NCBI GenBank assembly: GCA_030390025.1 | Contig: CM059432.1 | Coordinates: 42,844,001 to 42,908,000 of the forward strand | Length of the DNA stretch: 64,000 bases | Origin: Squalus acanthias | Lineage: Eukaryota | Direction of reading: 5' to 3' | In this document: positions 486-57,235 of the stretch, one piece after another | Position numbering within the stretch: the stretch's first letter is position 1 | Layout of the letters: each line of letters opens with the position of its first letter | The notes under the pieces: model-generated | Seen by the model: only the letters and a program-made list of their open reading frames with translations | Told to the model about the DNA's origin: nothing | The model's database searches: none | Position numbers and translations under genes: made by a program

Positions 486-667
486 CTTGCCCTCTCCCTT
501 TGTATCAGCCGCTCCTTAATTTTGTTTCCTGTCTTTTGTATACTTCCCATATAGTTTTAAAATTATTTTTTACTGTCCCCGTGGGGCCAAAAGGAGCAGG
601 ATGCTCTTCCATTCCCACAAGGAAAGCTTGTGTTTCCCCTGCTGCGGACTCGCCTCCACCCTCCCAT

Positions 668-9412: not shown

Positions 9413-10397
9413 AGTTTGCCTTAGCAGTTGGACCTAGGGAATTGTGAAGAGTTTATTCATTCAGCTGCAAACTGACTTGTATTGCAAAAACAAAATGGAT
9501 TCCCAGGACAGTACAGTGAGGACTGGCTGTGAAACTAAACTGTAACAGTACAGATTAACAGGCCACCCAGCTGCTGGCATTTTAAGGAATCCCTGGATCG
9601 CTGCAATGTGTGGCTCATAATAAGCAGATCTTGCAGAATAAAACAGTGATGTTTAACAGTGACATGTTGCTTACCTGTTTACATTTTTGATTTTGAAAAG
9701 GATTTATTGTATCAGCAAAACCATTTATATCCTATTACGTATGAGTTAGTATGTTGCTATGTTTATTTGTTTGTTTCCAAATATGTAGTAACTAAATGGG
9801 GTTTAAGTTTTCTATATTTTTGTTGTGTTGCAGTTTGAAGGATAAGGAAAAGGTTAACTGACTAATTAACGCTTGAGTTTCCAGCGCGGTTGGTACATCA
9901 GCTTTCACACATACTTTTAATTGGCAACAATCATTTCAGGGAGGATAATGTCTGGATCCCTTTGAGTTGTTAGTAGATCAGTTTGGAAATAGTGGAACCC
10001 TAACAAAGTAACATCATTTTTGTGGAACACAGGAATTACTAGATGAAAAAACACCAAGCTCCATCTAGCTCGCCTTCGACCATCCTGGTAGATGCATGAC
10101 ATAATGATAATGGAGTTGTTGACTAATCATAGCAATCAATCTCTACCAATTAGTCTACAACAGACCCAGACATGAAACGGAGAAAGTCCCAGTGGTGGAG
10201 AGCTTTGGGAACCATGGATCTGAAGCCACCTTTTTCCTCTAAAGCATACTACACTTACCACATGTCATGTCTCAAATTACTCATATATGCATCCCAAAAT
10301 GTTATTTTCTGAAAGAAATCTATCTGATTTGCACTGCAATATTATATGCTTTCACTGTTTCCCGAGGGAGTCTATTCCATAGATTGACTGAAATATT

Positions 10398-11117
10398 GGG
10401 GGGAATTTTAACTCCCAAAAATGGGTGGGTTTGGGTCAGTTGGGAAGTTAACATGTTCAAAATCTCAAATCTGAACCAAAGCCACCTCCAACACGCCCAC
10501 TTCTGGCTTTAACGGAGGCAGAACGAAGGGTGGGTGACCTATCCACTCTCAGGAGGTGGATCGGTTGGCAAATCCTTTTAAGGAGGCTGCGTCCCACTAT
10601 TGTAACAAGATTTTTTTTTTAACTAATGTCGGCCAGGTTTCCAGGCCCTCGGGAAACCCGGAAGGTAAAAAGAGGCGCGAAGGGCTAAATCCATAAGGTA
10701 AGTGCCTTTACAGCACTGCTTGTGGGCCAGGAGGAGCAGGAGTGTTTCCTCCAGGCCCAACAAGCTTACCCTGTAAATGCCCCCCGATCCCGCCTCGATC
10801 TCCCCCCCCGCCCATGATCTTCACCCCTGCATGATCTCTACACTTCCCCTGGACCCCATGATCTCTAACCCCCCCACCCCCCCTGGCACCACTAGATCTA
10901 CCTGCTTCTGAGGCTGCGTCCTTGTGCCTCAGGATTTTCCGTCCGACAGGTAGCAGGATTGTCAATCAGGCTGGCTGTCAGGCAGGGAAACCTGGAGAAA
11001 CAAATTAAAACACGTCCTGGAGTTAAAACTCCACGGCGTTTGTGGAAACCTGTACTACCGGGTTTCCCGACCATATCGAGACCATTGTCTCTGCAGATCA
11101 GTTTTGAATTTACCCCC
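10398..11117 (+). mobile_element. Harbinger-type MITE, family A (splice-donor/hairpin module and CCCCGATC repeats)
   Basis: GGGGGGAATTTTAACTCCCAAAAATGGGTGGG start is the reverse complement of the ends at 15401 and 33107; the far end is GAATTTACCCCC. Confidence 0.75.
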
Positions 11118-11218
11118 TACAAGCACAGTATTTGAGGCAAAGTATATTATCATTTAATTATATATAAATTCATCAGTTTTTTTTAACTTTCTATGAAATA
11201 TTTTATCTTACTGTACAA

Positions 11219-12727: not shown

Positions 12728-13511
12728 AATAGTGCGTTAATAGGCCTAACAAAAGCAATACACGTTTGATTTCAGATTCTGCTCGATGTACGTCAAAATG
12801 TTATGCTGTATCATTAATTAAGTACACTCTGAGACAAATGAAAAACTGCTCATTTGAATATCACAATAGAAATTTATTAAACTCCCTTTATATCTGTAGT
12901 TTTCAAACTTTTCCGTGTGGGGGATTCCCTGAAAATATTTACACATTCCTGAGACTCCATATCCTAACTTCTGAAAGACAACATTGCTATGCTCGTAGAA
13001 GAATTATTATATAGCAACAGACTGGCCTGGATATTAACAGATGGGTTGAGTAGGCGGTGGATTGGAGTTTCGGATGCGAAACCCGAAAGTCTAGGTTTTA
13101 ACTCCACAACGTGCGTTGTTTCTCCTGAACAGGTTCTCTGCCCAGAAGCCAGCCTGATTGACAGGCTTAGCTTCCAGTTGGACGGGGAGGGCTCCGGAGC
13201 AGGCCGCAGGAGCAGATATGTCTGTTCCCCGACCCCGGGGCGTGGTCTGATCCCCGACCTGAGGGAGGGTTTGATCCCCAACCACGGTGGTCTATTAAGG
13301 GGGGGGGTCTACTCTGATGGTGGGAGCTTCTGGGGCTGGGGGGAAGCACTCCTGCTCCTCCTGGCCCAGAAGCAGTGCTATTAAGGCACTTACCTTCTCC
13401 GCAAAGTTGTCCTCGCCTTGCTTTAGCTGCCGGGTTTCCCGAGGCCTGGGAAATCTGGCCGGCCAATGTTAAACCTGCAGAGCAGGTTAAATCAGAGGCT
13501 GCCAGCCTCAT

Positions 13512-15236
13512 TGATCTAGACGAGGGAACTAGATGTAATGGGGCAGAAATTAGGCTCGCACTATGTACTCACCCGTGGACGGAACGAAAGTGCCGTTTTC
13601 TTGCATGCACAGCGCGTGCGCAGGAAACCGGCACTTCCGTTCCCCTGAAGGAAGGGGTTCAGAGGTCGAACGCGCATGCCGGAGGGCCAGCGCGTTCGCC
13701 TCGCACTTTGTTTTTTTTTACAGGTTCCTCCGTGAGGGTAAGCACGGGGAAGATGCACAATGAAAAAGGAGGCGCAAGGTCTTCTTTTAACAAGGTAAGT
13801 GTTGATTTTATTAAAATTTAAACATTTTTTTCACAGATCTATCTTTTTTAATTACTTTAAAGAAAGGTAAGTTTAGTTTTAGCCCCGTTAAAAAGTGTAA
13901 TTATTTTTTTCAAAAATGTTGTTTAAAATAGTTAATTAATGTAATTTATAGTTATTTTAAAAATGTGATGTTTTAAAAAAAAATTATTTGTAGTTTTAGG
14001 GATGTTTTGGGGCTGATCTGTATTCATAGATTTGACAGGTCTTCCTGTCAAATCTATGAATGAAAGATGGTCTGCTGCCATTGGCTCTCCATGGCCCACG
14101 TGATCCCAGGGGACGCATCGCACTAACTACGCCCTTAGGATACGCAAGCACTGTGCGCCAGCAGTTGGAGGAGGCCCAGGACCGGAATCCCCTGCGGGCC
14201 CAGGGGTCAACAGCAGGCGCAGTAGGTAGTTGCGCATGCGATCCTTGCACCCGCGGGAAGCCAGGGAGCCGAATTTCTGGCCCAATATCTCTAAGTTTGC
14301 AGACGACACAAAGCTGGGTGGGCTTGTGTGCTGTGAGGAGGATGCAGAGAAACTCCAGTTTGATTTGGACAGGTTGGGTGATTGGGCAGATGCATGGCAG
14401 ATGCAGTATAATGTGGATAAATGCGAGGTTATCCACTTTGGTGGCAAAAACAGGAAGACAGATTATTATCTGAACGGCAATAGATTGGGAAAAGGGGAAG
14501 TGCAACGAGATCTGGGTGTCCTTGTGCACCAGTCGCTGAAGGTAAGCATGCAGGTGCAGCAGGCAGTTAAGAAGGCAAATGGCATGTTGGCCTTCATAGC
14601 GAGAGGATTCAAGTACAGGAGCAAGGATGTCTTGCTGCAGTTGTACAAGGCCTTGGTGAGACCACACCTTGAGTATTGTGTGCAGTTTTGGTTGCCTTCT
14701 CTGAGGAAGGATGTTCTTGCCATGGAGGGAGTGCAGCGAAGATTTACCAGACTGATACCTGGGATGGCAGGAATGACGTATGAAGAGAGATTGGGTCGAT
14801 TAGGCTTATATTCGCTAGAGTTTAGAAGAATGAGAGGGGATCTCATTGAAACTTATAAAATTCTAACAGGACTAGACAGACTAGATGCAGGAAGGATGTT
14901 CCCGATGGCGGGGAGTCCAGAACCAGAGGTCACAGTCGATGGATAAGGGGTAAGCCATTTAGGACTGAGATGAGGAGGAATTTCTTCACCCAAAGAGTGG
15001 TGAACCTGTGGAATTCTCTACCACAGAAGGCAGTTGAGGCCAATTCATTAAATATATTCAAGAAGAAGTTAGATATATTTCTTAAGGGTAAAGGGATCAA
15101 GGGATATGGGGAGAAAGCAGGGACATGGTACTGAATTTGGATGATCAGCCATGATCTCATTAAATGGTGGAGCAGGCTCGAGGGGCCGAATGGCCTACTC
15201 CTGCTCCTATCTTCTATGTTTCTATGCTTCTATGCT
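13512..15236 (+). mobile_element. 5'-truncated CR1 LINE containing a nested MITE
   Basis: DLDEGTRCN|ISKFADDTK is contiguous once 13540-14283 and one AAT are removed; (TTCTATG) tail at 15211-15236. Confidence 0.93.
13540..14283 (+). mobile_element. Harbinger-type MITE, family B, AAT target duplication
   Basis: AAT|GGGGCAGAAATTAGGCT ... AGCCGAATTTCTGGCCC|AAT; colinear with 59002-59763. Confidence 0.92.
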
Positions 15237-32439: not shown

Positions 32440-33107
32440 ACAGTAGGGACCGGAGGGGGAAGGTCGGAAGGCTGAAGGGTCATCGGGGGCCAGAGGGGTA
32501 GGTCAGAAGGCCAAGGGTGATCGGGGACTGGAGGAGGTAGGTCAGAAGGCCGGAGGGGTGATTGGAGGCCGGAGGGGGGATTGGGGGCTGGAGGGGGTGG
32601 TCGGGTCCGGGGGCCGGAGGGGGGATGGGTGGTCGGAGGGGTGTGGGAGGCTGGAGGGGGGTTTCGAGGCCAAGGATCAGTGGCCTCATGGGGGGGGGGG
32701 GAGGGGTTCCGAGGCCTTGAGGAGGTGGAAGGTCAGGGTGGGAGATCAGAAGGGTTGGGGGGATGTCTGATCGTGGGAGGTTGGTGAGACAGGAATGCTG
32801 GATCCAGCAGCTAAGTGGAAAGGCACTTACCTCCTGGATCTGGCAGTCCTGGCCTTCATTTAGCCGACGGGTTCCGCGAGGCCAGGGAAACTCGCCCGGC
32901 CGCAGTTAATTTTAAAATGGTGGATCACCATGAGGCACAGAGCCTCATTATAATATTTAAAATGCCAATCCAGGTTGGCTGCCCGCCTCCCCATCCCGTT
33001 TCCATTAAAACCGGAAGTCGGCAGGTTGGGGTCGGGATTCAGATTTTTAACTCTAACCTCCCACCCAACCCCATCCCACCCATTTTTGGGGGTTAAAATT
33101 CGTCCCC
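32440..33107 (-). mobile_element. MITE family A, partial copy with an expanded G-rich minisatellite (32446-32780)
   Basis: End CCCATTTTTGGGGGTTAAAATTCGTCCCC; GGCACTTACCT at 32822; imperfect GGCCGGAGGGGG(T)GATCGG repeats. Confidence 0.75.
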
Positions 33108-33189
33108 AAGTATTATAAGATTAATTGCAGAATAATGGTCCTTGTCAGAAGAGCATGAGTGTGATATTTTTCTTTTCATACGTCAGGTT

Positions 33190-34786: not shown

Positions 34787-35043
34787 AAGAACATAAGAAT
34801 ATAAGAAATAGGAGCAGGAGTCGGCCATTTGGCCCCTCGAGCCTGCTCCGCCATTCAATAAGATCATGGCTGATCTGATCTTGGCCTCAACTCCACTTCC
34901 CTGCCCGCTCCCCATAACCTTTGACTCCCCTATCATTCAAAAATCTGTCTATCTCCACCTTAAATATATTCAATGACCCAGCCTCCACAGCTCTCTGGGG
35001 TAGAAACATTCACTACCCTCTGAGAGAAGAAATTCCTCCTCAA
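34787..35043 (-). mobile_element. CR1 3' terminal fragment
   Basis: (CATAAGAA)n tail and CR1 3' UTR. Confidence 0.9.
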
Positions 35044-50313: not shown

Positions 50314-50656
50314 AGTGGGGTATGGCAAGGTGAGGTGAGAAAGAGACTTTTTAAAATATGTATATCTAGCTTAAGAGAGACGAGGGGGCGATTTTCCCAT
50401 TGGAGGCGGGTTTCGGTTTGGGTGGGTTCCAAACCCGCCTCCACTGTCAGGTGGGAAAAAGTTGCGATTTTCCCCTAATTGGCCAGTTAATTTCAGAGGT
50501 GTGGGATCCCCTGGGCCAATTAGTGTTTTGGGACTGAAACTCGCCTCTGCTGACGTCACTTCTCCAGCTTCATTTAAGGGCTGCTTGCTGCCTTGGCTCA
50601 TTCCCCTGGTTTTTGGTCGATGCTGCACCACTTCCAAACTTTTATCTCCTTGGAGA

Positions 50657-52636
50657 ATGGCCAGCTCCAAGGCAAGGGCCTCCCCGAGGTTCTCCGATGA
50701 GGCGCTGGGTATGCTGGTTGAGGGGGCGAGAGCCAGCAGGGAGGTGCTCTTCCCCTCATCTGGGAGGAAGAGGCCTCCCAAAGAAACCAAGGCTGTGTGA
50801 GTCCAGCTGGCAAGGGATATAACCTCCAGATCGGTGTGCAGCAGGACATGGCTGCAGTGCCATAAAAGGTTCAATGACCTTGTAAGATAAGGCAAAGTGA
50901 GTATACCTTCAGCATGATCCTCCTTCTGCTCCCCTTCTCCTCTCATCACCAGCACTCTGCATTGTCAACCTCCTCCTCCACATCCCACTTTACCCTTACA
51001 ACCCTTGCACCCTTCACCATCCCTCTCACTCTATGAACCCAATCACTTAATTATTCGACTATGCTGCCCTCACACTCCCTTTCAATGTTATGCAATGACA
51101 ATGACTAACAACGCACAGGGAGGGCCCTTGGATATGGAACCTCACTCCATCTTTGTCTCCTTCTAAGCATCTATGCTCTGGACTCTCTGCACTCACTCCA
51201 TTATTCTCACTCCAACTCCACTTGTCTCCCTCACTGCAGGAAAAGAGAGCCCACAATAGAAGGGAAAGGGCGAAGACAGGAGGAGGGCCACCTTCCATAG
51301 TCATTCTCACCCAGGCTGAAGAGGCGGCCCAGGACATCGCCGGCACAGAGGTGGAAGTGGAAGTGGGGGACGGACAGACGGGCGAGGCAGAGCAAGCTGG
51401 TGACAGAATAGTTTTGCGTCTCTCTCATTTACACTGCTTGAGTGAGTGAAATGGCTGCTGGTGTACATTATTAGAATGTCACTTGAGCATCTGCACTATT
51501 GCATGTGCATGCCACACTTCCGTCAAATGTCTAACCCATGCCTTTACTCCCCCACAGGACCATCCACAGAACCCCCCCCCCACTGTCGACGAGGAAGAGG
51601 CTGAGCCGGAAGACTCCTCAGAGGAACCTGCAACCTCTGAGGATTCAGCGTCAGCAGAATTAAGCGCACCCAGCACCAGTGCAGATACGCACACCTCGGT
51701 GGGACCTTCGGGACATAGAGTAGTGTTGTCACCTGGTGTATCACATCTCACAGGTGAGCATCAGCAGGTGGTGGAGACAGGGACAGCAGTGGAGAGTCCT
51801 CATCGGAGGTTGCAGGACTCTCCTAGCTTTGCTCCGCTGCATGTGGACCCTGTGCCCATCCAGAAGGGGAGCGGTGCTGGAAGTCCAGGAACAGGTGCAG
51901 GAATCTCTGACAGGTTTTGTCTCCAGGGTCACTGCGAGTGTGGAGAGGATGGAGGAGTCCAACTCTAACCTGAGCAGTGCCTTTGTGGAGGCAATGGCGC
52001 ATGAACACATCACCATGGAAAGGATGGCAACCACCGTGGAAAGGATGTCTACCTCCGTGGTTACGATGACTGCCTCTCTGGAAAGGGTGTTTACGGTAGA
52101 GGAGAGGATGGCTATGGCCAGAGTCTGGAAAACATGGTGATTGTTCAGAATAGACTGACATTTCTGGAAGAGCGATGGGCAGCTACTGAGCAGAGAAACC
52201 AGAGCTTCATGGAAGTCCTTTTGAGTAGGACTGCCAGTGCAGATACGGGTCCCCATGGCCCCCCTGATGTGCAGCAAGGTGCTCTCAAGCCACTTGTAAG
52301 CGCTGAGGTGGACCGGACCCATGAGAGGAAGATGGTGGCAGAGAACAAGGAAGTGGGGGCTCCTCTCCAAGCGCTCACACTTCCATGACACTGCGTAGCC
52401 CTCTGTCAGAGCCCCACCAGAGTCCGCACCCAACTGAGATGGGCGTCTCAGCCCCTGCACTGCCGCAGGATGAGCAGACATTTGGCGAGCCCTCACAGGC
52501 TCGGAAACCCAGAGGACGCCCGCCAAAGGTGTCGAAGCAGGAACAGCATGAAAGTGAGCAAGGGGCCTCCACTTCTGCTGAAGCCACAGGGGGAGCACCA
52601 CATAGTATGCATAAGAGAAAAATAAAGCACCATTAG
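50657..52636 (+). pseudogene. Harbinger Myb/SANT DNA-binding protein gene, 3 exons (50657-50896, 51240-51399, 51558-52636), with stops and frameshifts
   Basis: PRFSDEALGMLVE...RTWLQCHKRFNDL; EKRAHNRRERAKTGGGPP; GT-AG junctions; acidic tract, heptad repeat and RKPRGRPPK; AATAAA at 52621. Confidence 0.85.
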
Positions 52637-52891
52637 TCACGGGGTAGGCACTTGGGTGATTGTTTCTGTTTATTAATGAAATGCCATCCCTGTGTGAATG
52701 TATTAAAATTAGGTGATGGCAAACTGTTGGCATGATGGCATCTGTTATTTCGGCTTAAGCAGCTCCACATTGCGGCTCCGTGACACTTGCGTGGTCAGGT
52801 TGGTGGTCAGAGTGAAAGGAGGCCAGAGAGTCATGTCCATTGTCTATCATGTGTTAAGAAGGAGTCAAGCACATGTGCCATAATGGGCAGC

Positions 52892-54100
52892 CTATGCAAA
52901 TCTGGCCAGGATGAGTGCATCCTTTGCATCACGGGCAGCCATGTGCTCGCGTGCTGCCGCTGCTGCTGGTAGATGTGCCGCCGCTCAGTCTTCCTCATCA
53001 TCCTCCTCCTCCTCCTCCTCCTCCTCCTCCTCATCCTCATCTGAGGAGGCTATGAATTGAGCCACTTGCTCATCAGGAAGCTGCAAGCCACGATGCTGTG
53101 CCATGTTGTGCAGTGCACAGCAGACCATGACCATTCTGGAGACACTGGCTGCTCCACCTGATCTGTCAAGGCATCGGAATCGCATCTTCAGCAAGCCAAT
53201 GGTTTGCTCGATGATGGACCTGGTCGAAATGTGGCTGGAATTGTAGCGCTCCTCAGCCTCATTAGCTGGCCTTCTGATCGGTGTCATTAGCCACTTCTTC
53301 AGGGGATAGCCCTTGTCACCAAGTTGGTTTGGTGGATTGAAGAGTGGAGGAACACTAGAGTTCCGCAGGATGAATGAGTCATGGCAACTACCACAGATCT
53401 TGGCGTAAACATGCAAAATCTCCTTCTTGTAGTTACACACCAGCTGTACGTTGAGGGAGTGGAAGCCCTTGCGGTTGACAAAGATAGCTGGGTTGTGATG
53501 GGGTGCCCTAAGGGCCACATGTGCGCAGTCTACGACACTCTGCACCATTGGCAAGCCTGCCATATTTGCAAAGCCAACTGAACGTGCGGTTACACTTGCT
53601 TAATCCCTTGAGAAGTGGATGTAATTGTGCGCCTTTGCGAAAAGGGCATCAGTAACCTATGTGATGCAACTGTGGGCGGCCGACTGGGAGATGCTGCTGA
53701 TGATCCCTGGAAGGAGCCTGAGGCAAAAAATTTGAGTGCGGTGGTTACTTTGACAGCCACTGGTAAGGGGTGTCCACCCGTTCCTCTGGGCTCCAGGTGT
53801 TGGTGCAGCAGTGCGCAGATCTCTCGGACAACCTCTCGCAAAAGTCTCAGCCTCCTTTGGCACTGCTGCTCACTCGTTGAAGTAGCTCATCCTCTGTCTG
53901 TAAACCCTGCGAGGGGGGTATCTCCTGCAGCGACGTGCTGCCATGCGCTAGCGCCTTCTACCCTGTGCAGCATCAGGTGGGTGAGCAGGAGGTTGGCGCT
54001 CCTGCTGCTGTTGCTGCTGAGCTGCTTTGTTCTGCTGATGCTGTGGTTGCTCCTCATCTGAATCTGAGGTCCATGATGAAAGGAAATAAATGGTTCCCAT
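52892..54100 (-). pseudogene. Harbinger (HARBI1-like) DDE transposase pseudogene
   Basis: [72 protein letters not shown], poly-Glu, DALILARFA*; several stops and frameshifts. Confidence 0.93.
52990..53040. repeat. (TCC)n microsatellite encoding the acidic transposase tail
   Basis: TCCTCCTCC run read directly from the sequence. Confidence 0.9.
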
Positions 54101-55045
54101 GCTGCTGGCAGATACCTCCGTTAGGGAAGCGCTCAGTCCAAGCGGGGAGAGGGTCTTCCAAGGAGGTCCCACAGCTGAGAGATAGCAGCTGCAGCACCTC
54201 CGACTTCGGTAGGCCTGCTAAAAGTGCTGAAAGACCTGTGGAACAAAAGTTCTGCCACCTGCAACTCCCTGATGAAAGCTCGGTTTTAATGGTGGAGCTG
54301 CAGCTGTGAGGAGGCCACCCACTTGTCAACCAGCCAGGATTAGCTGGCGTGGTTTAGGAGGGTCGTGCAACACACACAAAATGTGGCAAAATAACAAAGG
54401 CCTGTCAAAATAGGATTATAGAGGCCCTTAACGACTATTTAAAGGTCTTAACTACCTCTCCTGACTGATGGAGGCGGGACCGAATCGCACCCATCAAATC
54501 CGCCTCCGGCAAAATTGCGCGGAGGCGGGTTCTGAACCCGCGCTCACTTTTTGCGATTTTCCCAACTGTCCCGCCTCCAAACCCGCCTCCTCGGGGCTGG
54601 GAAAATCGCGGCCAATGAATGGATAATTTGATAATTCAATTCTAAATACATATAACCATCTTTCTGAGATTTTGCACAGCAGTAGATGTGGCGTTTATTA
54701 CATTATATATGTAATGTATTTTCTTATCCTCCCAATGATGTTACAGTTTATTGTGGTTATTTTCAGTGCACAATTTGGTGATGAAATTACTTTCCAGTAA
54801 CAAAGTAAGCTTAAAGATAATGCTCAAAGTGGAGTAGCTGATGTCCAGCAGGGTATAATTATTGTATGTTGGATATAGTCTTTGTTATATTATACTACAA
54901 TATTTTAATGTCCAGCTGTCACATTAAATCCCAATCAAAATGACTAACTGCAAATATCTTTTTAAATGACATTGGAGTCTTGAATTCTTACCCTACTATA
55001 CTGGCCTGTGGGCTTATTTCCAATAAAATCCTCTGCTTGATAAAT

Positions 55046-57235
55046 CAACAATAACAACTTTCACTTATAAAGTGCCTTTAATGTTGTGAAACAACCCCAA
55101 GATGCTTCACAAAGAGGACGGCGAGAGGGTTGGACATCAAACAGGGATTGGGGAAGATTTAGGGGAGGTGGCAGAATTGATTTGAGGAGGCCTTTAGAGG
55201 TAGTCAGAAAAGTAGCAGGCAGGGCCCACATTAACGCATGGGCCTATGGGGACTGTGACTAGGCCTCCCAACCGAATAGGGAGTCCCCGCCAGTGGCCCT
55301 GCAAACATAGCTCAGCAGTCACTCGACGAGCCGTTTCAGGCAGGCAGTGACTGGAACTGGAGTGTTGGGCTTCCCCAGCTGGGTGTAGGGGGGAGGGGAG
55401 GCCGAGGGTTTACTCAACAGACAGTAGTTGAACCATTGTGCCTGCGTTGTGCGGCCCGCATATGGTCATCAGTGGCGGGAAGATGGTCACAGAAGAAGCT
55501 TGAGGCTGTCAGCAGAGTGGAAAGGTCAGTGGAACCTTGCAACATCATGGAAGATGGCAAATAAGTTCAGGTTCACGCTCTTAATGAGAAATACCCACAC
55601 TGACGATGAATGGATCTCAATGCAAAATGAAATGATAAAGCACAAAGTAATATCAGTGGAGAGAAAATAAAAAACAGCACGTGGGGCAGCAGCTGTGCTC
55701 AATTAACACTGACTGGCCCTCAGAATGATCACAGTAAAGAATTTAACAAGCGCAATACATTTATATTAATTTTATAGCTTTAAATCTCAGATACATATTT
55801 GGTAACCATTCTTCCTAAAGCAAAGATAGTTATTTTATTTTATTGTGTGTGCCAAAATTAAGCAGCTTCATTTAAGCATAGCATATTGTGATATGATTTG
55901 CTTCATTATTAATGCAGTGTGTAAACATTCTACGGGGCTATTTCTTCATCCATTTTATTACATGTTTTTGCTTTATTGGAAGGGGTGGTTGTGTGCGGAG
56001 GGGGAATTGTGTAGTGGGGTAGGGGACCTGAATGTTCTTGGTGTCCGGGGCCCCAAGAATTCTTGGGTTGACTCCTGGCATCAAGCCAGGTGAGTTTGTA
56101 AAGGAAATGACAGCGTGCAGAGGCATGGTGGTCAATGGTGGAGTAGGGAGAGGAGGATGCAAAGTAGATTCCATTCGGAAGAGTGGAAAATGCAAGTTGG
56201 TACGGTTGGAGAAGGTTGGAGAGTTACAACGATGCAAGGCCATAGAGGGATTGGAAGACATGGGCAAAGAATTTGAAATAAAAATGCTGGGGGTACCAGT
56301 GGAAGTCAGAAAGAACAGGGGTGAGTGGGCCTTAGCCTGAGAAAGGATGTGGACAGCAGAGTCCTGGATCAGTTGGAGTTTGTGTAGAATATAGTTGGGG
56401 AGAGTAATGGGCGGTCAGTGGGCTAGTGTGCCCGCTGCCTGCTTGTTGCTATGGCCATAAGGGCAGAACCATTTTGAAGCCCGGGCTTTATTTACATGCA
56501 GCTGGTAAGTTGCGAGTGCTAAACTGGTGCTCCGAGTAGCCTTGCTGGTTGGGCAGGGCAGGAGCCCGGTTGGCTCCTACGCTGAGCCAGATGACGGTGC
56601 TTGGGGTGCGGGGGTGGCAGTCCTGGGAGGGGGTCTTGCACTGACTGGCAGCAAGCTGAGTTTTTTTTCCTGGGTGAAGGAGGAGTACTCCAGCTCCTCC
56701 TGACTCCACAAAAATAGAAGTTTTAAAAGAAACTTTAGCCATTTTCTGAGTGGCTTCCAGTGGTTCTTTTAAGGGCCGCAGGTTAGCCATTCAGTGTTGG
56801 TACAAATGGGCAAAACATGTGCGCTTTGCCCATTTCTACCTCAAAGTGCAATCCGCACCCTGATTTGCATATTACAAATGGTCTGAAACAGGCTGACCCT
56901 CCAGCCGCCCAGCTGAGGACCCTACCCAAGATGGTGGTGGCTGGAGCAGCAACGTAAATCGATCGGTAAATGACCCGACAGGGTTATCACACACAAATTG
57001 CCCTATTTATGCCAGACGGGAGCCTTTAAAATTCATATGGTTGAGTCTAGAGGTAACAAAATTGTGGATGAAGATTTCAGCAGCATGGGGTGGCATATGG
57101 ATTGAAGTGGGCAGAGGTTGAAGTAGGAAGTCTTGATGATAGACTGGTTCATATCAGGGTCTAAAAAGACGTCAAGATTATGCATAGTCTGAGCGAGCAG
57201 CTTGGAAAGGGGATGGAAATGAGCGCTAAGGTGCA
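55046..57235 (-). mobile_element. Old L2 fragment split by a possible hAT-like element (about 55220-56090) and a MITE (about 56410-57035)
   Basis: L2 tail at 55046-55110; L2 body pieces at 56100-56400 and 57040-57235; CAGGGCCCACATTAAC start at 55220. Confidence 0.55.

Follow-up and report, generated by a model that had tools for sequence, protein, structure and literature searches.

PIF/Harbinger MITEs, which are Tourist-like, are short non-coding elements with terminal inverted repeats and a 3-bp target-site duplication, and their ends derive from two-gene Harbinger transposons. Internal palindromes are already known among them and are stated for the Xenopus element Harbinger-N12A_XT (PMC12676858). 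Harbinger terminal inverted repeats are given as 25-50 bp by PMC9179366, and that source reports none of these elements in elephant shark and urges the examination of other cartilaginous fish. A 64,000-nt stretch of the 3.7-Gb genome of Squalus acanthias (hereafter the window) contains elements that resemble these systems. They differ from known Harbinger MITEs in that families with unrelated arms have one palindromic core in common, with U1-consensus 9-mers beside it on one strand or both. A literature search, with repeat-library consensuses outside its scope, found no description of such a shared core of palindrome and donor.

The module under study is the centre of a non-autonomous Harbinger element (Table 1). 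The element has identical 3-bp flanks and imperfect terminal inverted repeats that are shorter than the published range, and no open frame of at least 110 aa crosses its 686 bp. Its ends are homologous to those of an element coding for DDE_Tnp_4 and a Myb/SANT protein, and both genes occur in the genome. The family to which it belongs (family A) has a high copy number, with 2104 candidates and 1096 exact matches to an arm pattern genome-wide; identical 3-bp flanks were found at 8 of the 14 loci for which both ends were recovered among 60 scanned. A preliminary description had named five places in the window (the copies at 10695, 13326, 32790, 581 and 56670), all of which read as it reported, including the GCTTCT/AGAAGC swap of the sister copy and the TAAGTG/CACTTA pairing of the third.

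Table 1. Features of the Harbinger-related elements in the window.
Feature	Position	Strand	Remarks
Decayed P3 fragment	576..625	+	without donor
Target-site duplication ATT, left	10395..10397	+	sequence read
Non-autonomous Harbinger element, family A copy	10398..11083	+	686 bp; imperfect terminal inverted repeats of ~12 bp
Left arm	10398..10680	+	~280 nt of homology to transposase-side end of an autonomous Harbinger family
Palindrome inside left arm	10629-10665		
U1-consensus donor-like 9-mer AAG/GTAAGT	10695..10703	+	AAG = 10695-10697, GT from 10698
Small hairpin P2, GTGC/GCAC	10702..10718	+	specific to families A and B
Long palindrome P3, GGAG loop	10718..10766	strand-neutral	core common to many MITE families with unrelated arms
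Partial inverted donor copy, partner in stem P1	10764..10773	-	intact only in a minority of copies
Decayed antisense donor-like motif, right arm	10896..10904	-	family majority CAG/GTAGGT
Target-site duplication ATT, right	11084..11086	+	sequence read
Sister copy B	13095..13461	-	arm palindrome; donor 13382-13390; P2; P3 with basal pair swapped
Family C copy, left part	32740..33109	-	donor, then its own inverted copy; no P3
Broken autonomous Harbinger	~50385-54615	Myb-like exon +, DDE_Tnp_4 -	genes convergent
Family D1 copy	56660..56860	-	P3 present, donor absent

Both arms of the window element carry what we take to be promoter-like features (10430-10560 and 10959-10985), namely GC boxes, CCAAT, and ETS-like and PBX/PREP-like sites. 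Many fragments of LINE and GIY-YIG-type retroelements lie in the window, and the surroundings of the window copy yielded no identifiable host gene. Several copies share their flanking repeat context (window 10300-10397 and 11084-11140; L005, L013, L037, L145), which suggests a preferred target within another repeat family.

The long palindrome is far more widespread than the element itself. Its exact 22-nt core has 233 matches in the genome and the reversed control none; this recurrence is far beyond chance, and it extends across different families more widely than the preliminary description had seen. P3 was present in 7 of 60 random 10-kb stretches of the genome, from which roughly 40,000 copies are extrapolated. 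At least three groups of MITE families, with left arms that align barely or not at all, have this core in common. At 90 examined core loci, 3 of them near-duplicates, the left arms fall into many groups, and when the A, E and H arms are reduced to their majority sequences, the longest match they share is 19 nt. Families E, H and I show terminus-like ends on both sides at 48 of the 90 core loci, with identical 3-bp flanks at 3 loci versus 2.1 when shuffled, the terminus pattern being a crude one. The hairpin was also the part of the element with the deepest coverage in a sequencing run of another organism, most likely of DNA.

P3 usually stands 25-45 nt past MAG/GTAAGT, often with a second donor on the opposite strand. 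Calling a donor-like 9-mer when at least 6 of 7 scored letters matched, one was found 10-70 nt upstream in 37 of the 90 core loci (mean 1.6 and maximum 5 in 200 shuffles). On the antisense strand such a 9-mer stands no more than 60 nt upstream in 20 of the 90. Copies picked by their arms show the same association: family H (n = 30) has a sense donor in 17, an antisense donor in 19 and P3 in 11 (E below 0.1), family E (n = 30) has 13, 12 and 22, respectively, and family A (n = 50) has a donor in 22 and P3 in 37.

The core together with the right arm (family E majority, 33 nt; window 10728-10766) matches the antisense 3' tail of an abundant LINE/SINE, represented by window 34794-34868, at 23 of 33 ungapped positions, 12 of them consecutive. 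A scan of 1.46 million positions gave matches of at least 23 in 17 LINE/SINE tails, 8 P3 copies and 2 others. P3 may have originated as a captured LINE tail that was made symmetric later.

Donor and hairpin each occur without the other. Family D1, which includes the 56670 copy, has P3, and the donor was found in 1 of its 22 copies. P3 was missing from all 30 copies read of family C (1701 candidates); in its place stands an inverted copy of the ~20 nt ending at the donor, after which the element rejoins the sequence that stands 3' of P3 in family A. Family C thus appears, visibly from its sequence, to have arisen by fold-back copying. Several family H copies likewise carry a back-to-back donor pair and lack P3, and P2 is confined to families A and B.

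Donors close to a hairpin capped by GGAG are also known from HIV-1 SL2/SL3 and Lin28-type targets. By analogy with these, the preliminary description had proposed a conserved RNA three-way junction that would hide the donor and offer its GGAG loop to a zinc-knuckle protein in host transcripts. The fold itself is as described: a three-way junction with an outer stem of 4 pairs is the best fold of 10695-10772, at -40.1 kcal/mol (z -4.8, 300 dinucleotide shuffles). Read in antisense, this stretch folds at -41.0 (z -5.4), and in 4 of the 5 copies named above the antisense fold equals or betters the sense one. Across 84 core loci the energies are -31.6 for sense and -31.4 for antisense, with 114 G-U pairs in sense and 152 in antisense. 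G-U and A-C mismatches stand at 43 to 36 in family A and 10 to 17 in family C, so that the strand-specific tolerance of G-U over A-C expected of a structured RNA is absent from these two families. No Rfam family reached its gathering score within the window.

The donor-pairing stem P1 fares no better as a general feature, and the window copy is untypical in it. Of 73 family A copies examined, 62 were readable after AAGC, and they continue with TTACC in 11, TAACC in 16 and TACCC in 16; the P1 partner is thus intact in 11 of the 62. The pairing probability of P1 exceeds 0.5 in 9 of 38 copies, and sequestration of the donor as a general rule is not supported. The loop is GGAG in 53 of 67 readable family A copies, the P1 partner may be ancestral in this family, and pairing of the donor recurs in families C and H; all three points speak for the junction. 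The limitation of P2 to two families, the inverted loops described below and the separability of donor and hairpin speak against it, and the last two also tell against a need for a GGAG loop on the donor strand. The module differs from the viral and Lin28-type sites in these same respects and in lacking strand specificity or an Rfam match, and the likeness remains an analogy.

Covariation had been read as a further sign of an RNA structure. It stands between families: in an arm-swap test on the 84 core loci, from which 6 inverted-loop candidates were excluded, the basal stems of family E reach -16.2 kcal/mol with arms of the same family versus -12.4 with arms of another, and those of family H -14.2 versus -12.6. 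It does not stand between copies. A copy's own arms have no pairing advantage over sibling arms in families E and H, and family I (11 copies) shows neither between-family nor copy-level covariation. Double changes within a copy number 3 in 969 cells in family A and 1 in 599 in family C, and compensatory changes beyond shared ancestry were not found in these families.

This pattern, between families and not between copies, is as template switching would give. Template switching in short inverted repeats yields homogenisation of the arms and inversion of the spacer (PMC8604942). Loops inverted relative to their arms were seen by eye at 5 of the 90 core loci, and a sixth was flagged by script; family D1 has 3 inverted loops among 10 readable copies (12 of 22 were unreadable), and family A none among 67. 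The elements are like the cases treated in PMC8604942 in their matched arm changes, inverted loops and apparent local conservation without an adaptive cause. They are unlike those cases in that the process is deduced here from vertebrate transposon subfamilies and leaves the constancy of the core across families unaccounted for. Template switching maintains the symmetry of the palindrome, yet alone it fails to fix a 22-nt core across families.

Excess conservation across copies was a check proposed in the preliminary description. The module is without CpG; in the arms, such sites change about three times faster. Among 27 copies picked by the right arm, raw divergence outside CpG was 0.098 for the module versus 0.189 for the left arm, figures that take in truncated copies and differences between subfamilies. 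An explanation of the module's conservation by CpG alone had been biased by picking copies on the left arm, and the right-arm sample, which still favoured the module, overturned it. A later rate test, which settled the matter, dropped poorly aligned regions and truncated copies and split variants into rare and shared ones. In 44 arm-picked copies the module then has 0.067 rare non-CpG changes per site and the donor 0.071, close to the 0.079 of the left arm and the 0.061 of the middle; pooled over these 44 copies, module and left arm differ with an odds ratio of 0.84 (p 0.049), and module and middle with p 0.34.

A sample of 50 family A copies in genome order, of which the 40 with a P3 match were used, gave a similar picture. 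In subfamily A1 (18 copies) rare changes are 0.071-0.079 in the arm, 0.081 in the donor and 0.065 in P3, and in A2/B (22 copies) 0.067-0.090, 0.111 and 0.108, respectively. Once CpG is set aside, neither donor nor hairpin shows excess conservation after insertion in these samples; rare changes at the donor, 0.071-0.111 per site, are like those of the arms, and the proposed check thus went against the RNA model. Constraint does not act on inserted copies in bulk. At the level of subfamily A1, shared variants reach 0.074-0.076 in the arms and are scarcer, at 0.00-0.022, in the centre; this contrast is weaker in A2/B. Because rare changes are arm-like while shared variants are scarcer in the centre, any constraint would act on master elements, or centres would have been exchanged between masters.

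The absence of strand bias, of post-insertion conservation and of copy-level covariation largely refutes the RNA junction for the bulk of copies, and as an account of the module we regard it as very improbable; several of the outcomes that the preliminary description had named as refuting it were obtained. A few individual copies could still have been co-opted as RNA junctions.

Central sites of the donor-like motif carry the full U1 consensus from -3 to +6, as had been claimed, and do not look like chance hexamers: of 26 sites near P3 picked by the inner hexamer, 23 have A at -2, 24 have A or C at -3 and 19 have T at +6. Sense and antisense sites share the letters from -3 to +6, in part because of the scoring. 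Beside termini, the same inner hexamer has A at -2 in only 3 of 22. Since the extra splice letters are present at central sites and missing at terminal ones, the central motif resembles a true splice signal and differs from the probable protein sites at the termini. The 9-mer also persists while the bases on either side of it differ between subfamilies.

It is improbable, though worth weighing, that the motif is instead a DNA site for a Myb/SANT-like or host protein, with the palindrome helping to bring the ends of the element together. The inner hexamer is 4.2-fold over background 10-60 nt from terminus-like ends (80 ends), and inverted pairs occur there in other Harbinger families. The second gene of the Harbingers in this genome is Myb_DNA-bind_5 (3 of 3 tested), and such proteins are described as binding element ends (PMC9179366, PMC9392472). 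Against such a site, the central inverted pairs have gaps of 2 to 14 nt, a spread not expected of a fixed dimer site, and central sites carry the extra splice-consensus letters. The hexamer is not enriched at the autonomous ends of the commonest families either (17 seen versus 19 expected, and 5 versus 16), and a resemblance to the MSANTD3 motif was not confirmed in a literature search.

Inverted GGTGAG pairs without splice-type flanks stand 10-60 nt from the termini in other Harbinger families (L114, L117, L124, L137, L142, L166; window 13460-13900), and from their sequence these are probable candidates for Myb-protein sites. Any likeness of the module to a CTCF site we take to be weak, judged by eye.

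A more serious, though tentative, alternative accepts the DNA origin of the hairpin as set out further below and places selection on the donors of master elements. Inward promoters would drive transcription, U1 recruited at the donors would raise transcription and access for the transposase, and more copies would follow. The splice-type letters at -3, -2 and +6 near P3 and not near termini fit this view. So do the donors on both strands of arm-picked families H and E, given a background density of 0.34 per kb per strand, and the Myb-side ends of autonomous elements, where donors do not exceed that background (3 of 29 on either strand). As these ends are at background, the donor is a trait specific to MITEs within the sampled elements. 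There is also a likeness to first-donor (intron-mediated) enhancement, in which the strength of the first donor and U-runs raise expression in human cells (bioRxiv 10.64898/2026.09.28.754465): here too a strong donor and U-runs, the latter 3' of the donor in families E, H and I, lie 3' of promoter-like DNA.

Several points weigh on the other side. Copies within a family are related and not independent, and only ~3 independent arm groups stand behind the donor counts. Family D1 was amplified without the donor, and in families C and H the donor sits inside a perfect inverted pair, where access of U1 should be impeded. The cited expression effect concerns spliced introns, and any transcript, start site or spliced intron of the present elements is putative. 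The more specific proposal, that unrelated MITE families gained or kept inward U1 sites on both strands around a shuffled palindromic cassette because U1 recruitment aids the mobility of masters, seems to us a little less probable again.

Contigs of other organisms that were guessed to derive from RNA bear on use of the donor. With the whole element, none of those listed has a joint or loose end leaving at the donor, and with a consensus-like copy cut past the donor those listed continue into the hairpin (X1 13, X2 2, X3 4). One X2 contig departs exactly at the donor, but the 7 letters with which it continues are a fold-back of the 7 that precede them. Evasion of HUSH was considered as a role for the donor and rejected: in PMC8770142, HUSH acts on long intronless transcripts, and it is the intron body that protects, not splice signals.

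The source of the donor was sought among autonomous relatives. The genome holds 63,886 candidates for a Harbinger transposase, among which a young family contributes numerous open frames of ~390 aa. The left arm of family A aligns over ~280 nt to the transposase-side end of one autonomous family (L261-L290; 1186 candidates, 30 loci aligned). P3 is absent from all 30 of these loci, and the place aligned to the MITE donor holds non-donor sequence, though the alignment at this spot is weak, its score being attained by 51 of 2000 shuffles. Another autonomous family, a young one (L231-L260; 26 of the 30 top transposase loci), also lacks P3 and has predicted donor, branch-like and pyrimidine/AG signals before the transposase start, which makes spliced leaders in Harbinger parents plausible here. 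In one member, L233, the upstream part has been exchanged for unrelated sequence.

No arm-picked copy continues into a transposase (0 of 110: 30 H, 30 E, 50 A), and inheritance of the donor from a parent is therefore something we infer. Two 5-kb elements with both arms gave no Harbinger coding match, a genome pattern search for a donor-bearing parent gave 0 matches, and none of these searches found a parent carrying these arms plus the donor. A strong P3 match occurs in 4 of 116 regions upstream of Myb or transposase matches (L346, L030, L043, L198). L346 was rejected as a P3-bearing parent, being a separate MITE, as were L030 and L043, in which P3 belongs to neighbouring family A copies.

Family A copies often face the Myb end of an autonomous Harbinger head to head (L033, L043, L051, L052, L055, L030; 5 of 29 left-arm-picked loci), at 280-710 nt from the start codon of the latter, probably through repeated insertion at regenerated target sites. 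At L093 (G000:C12, 7400-8415) a near-identical family A left arm of 210 nt runs on into another autonomous element, and the module is missing, a configuration that reads as a chimera or nested insertion.

The explanation we favour, with somewhat better than even confidence, is a DNA palindrome whose halves are kept matched by template switching, joined to a splice donor inherited from the leaders of parent elements, in copies that decay neutrally. Each left arm would represent the promoter and leader of a parent, ending at or near the donor. Such arms would have been joined to one common palindromic centre, and fold-back copying would then have added family-specific stem bases, flipped loops and produced inverted donor copies. 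Transposase acting in trans would have spread the elements, with no need for an RNA fold. The spread of family D1 without the donor, and of family C and some H subfamilies without P3, favours this explanation. Against it stand the failure to find a donor-bearing parent, the persistence of the 9-mer amid changing flanks and the scarcity of shared A1 variants in the centre. The element anatomy, the sharing of the core across families, the neutral decay, the strand symmetry, the loop inversions and the separability of donor and hairpin are direct observations.

The elements are best read as a warning case, in which a stable, covarying hairpin and a perfect donor occur in a DNA transposon without an RNA function. 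Absence of CpG, common ancestry and fold-back copying are the sources of the misleading RNA-like signal. MITE families of this kind are mosaics around a common centre, and their ~40,000 extrapolated copies form a large stock of cryptic donors. If the donors of masters are indeed selected, U1 and transcription would be tied to cut-and-paste mobility, and inward U1 sites would represent splice signals put to selfish use by elements without an RNA stage.
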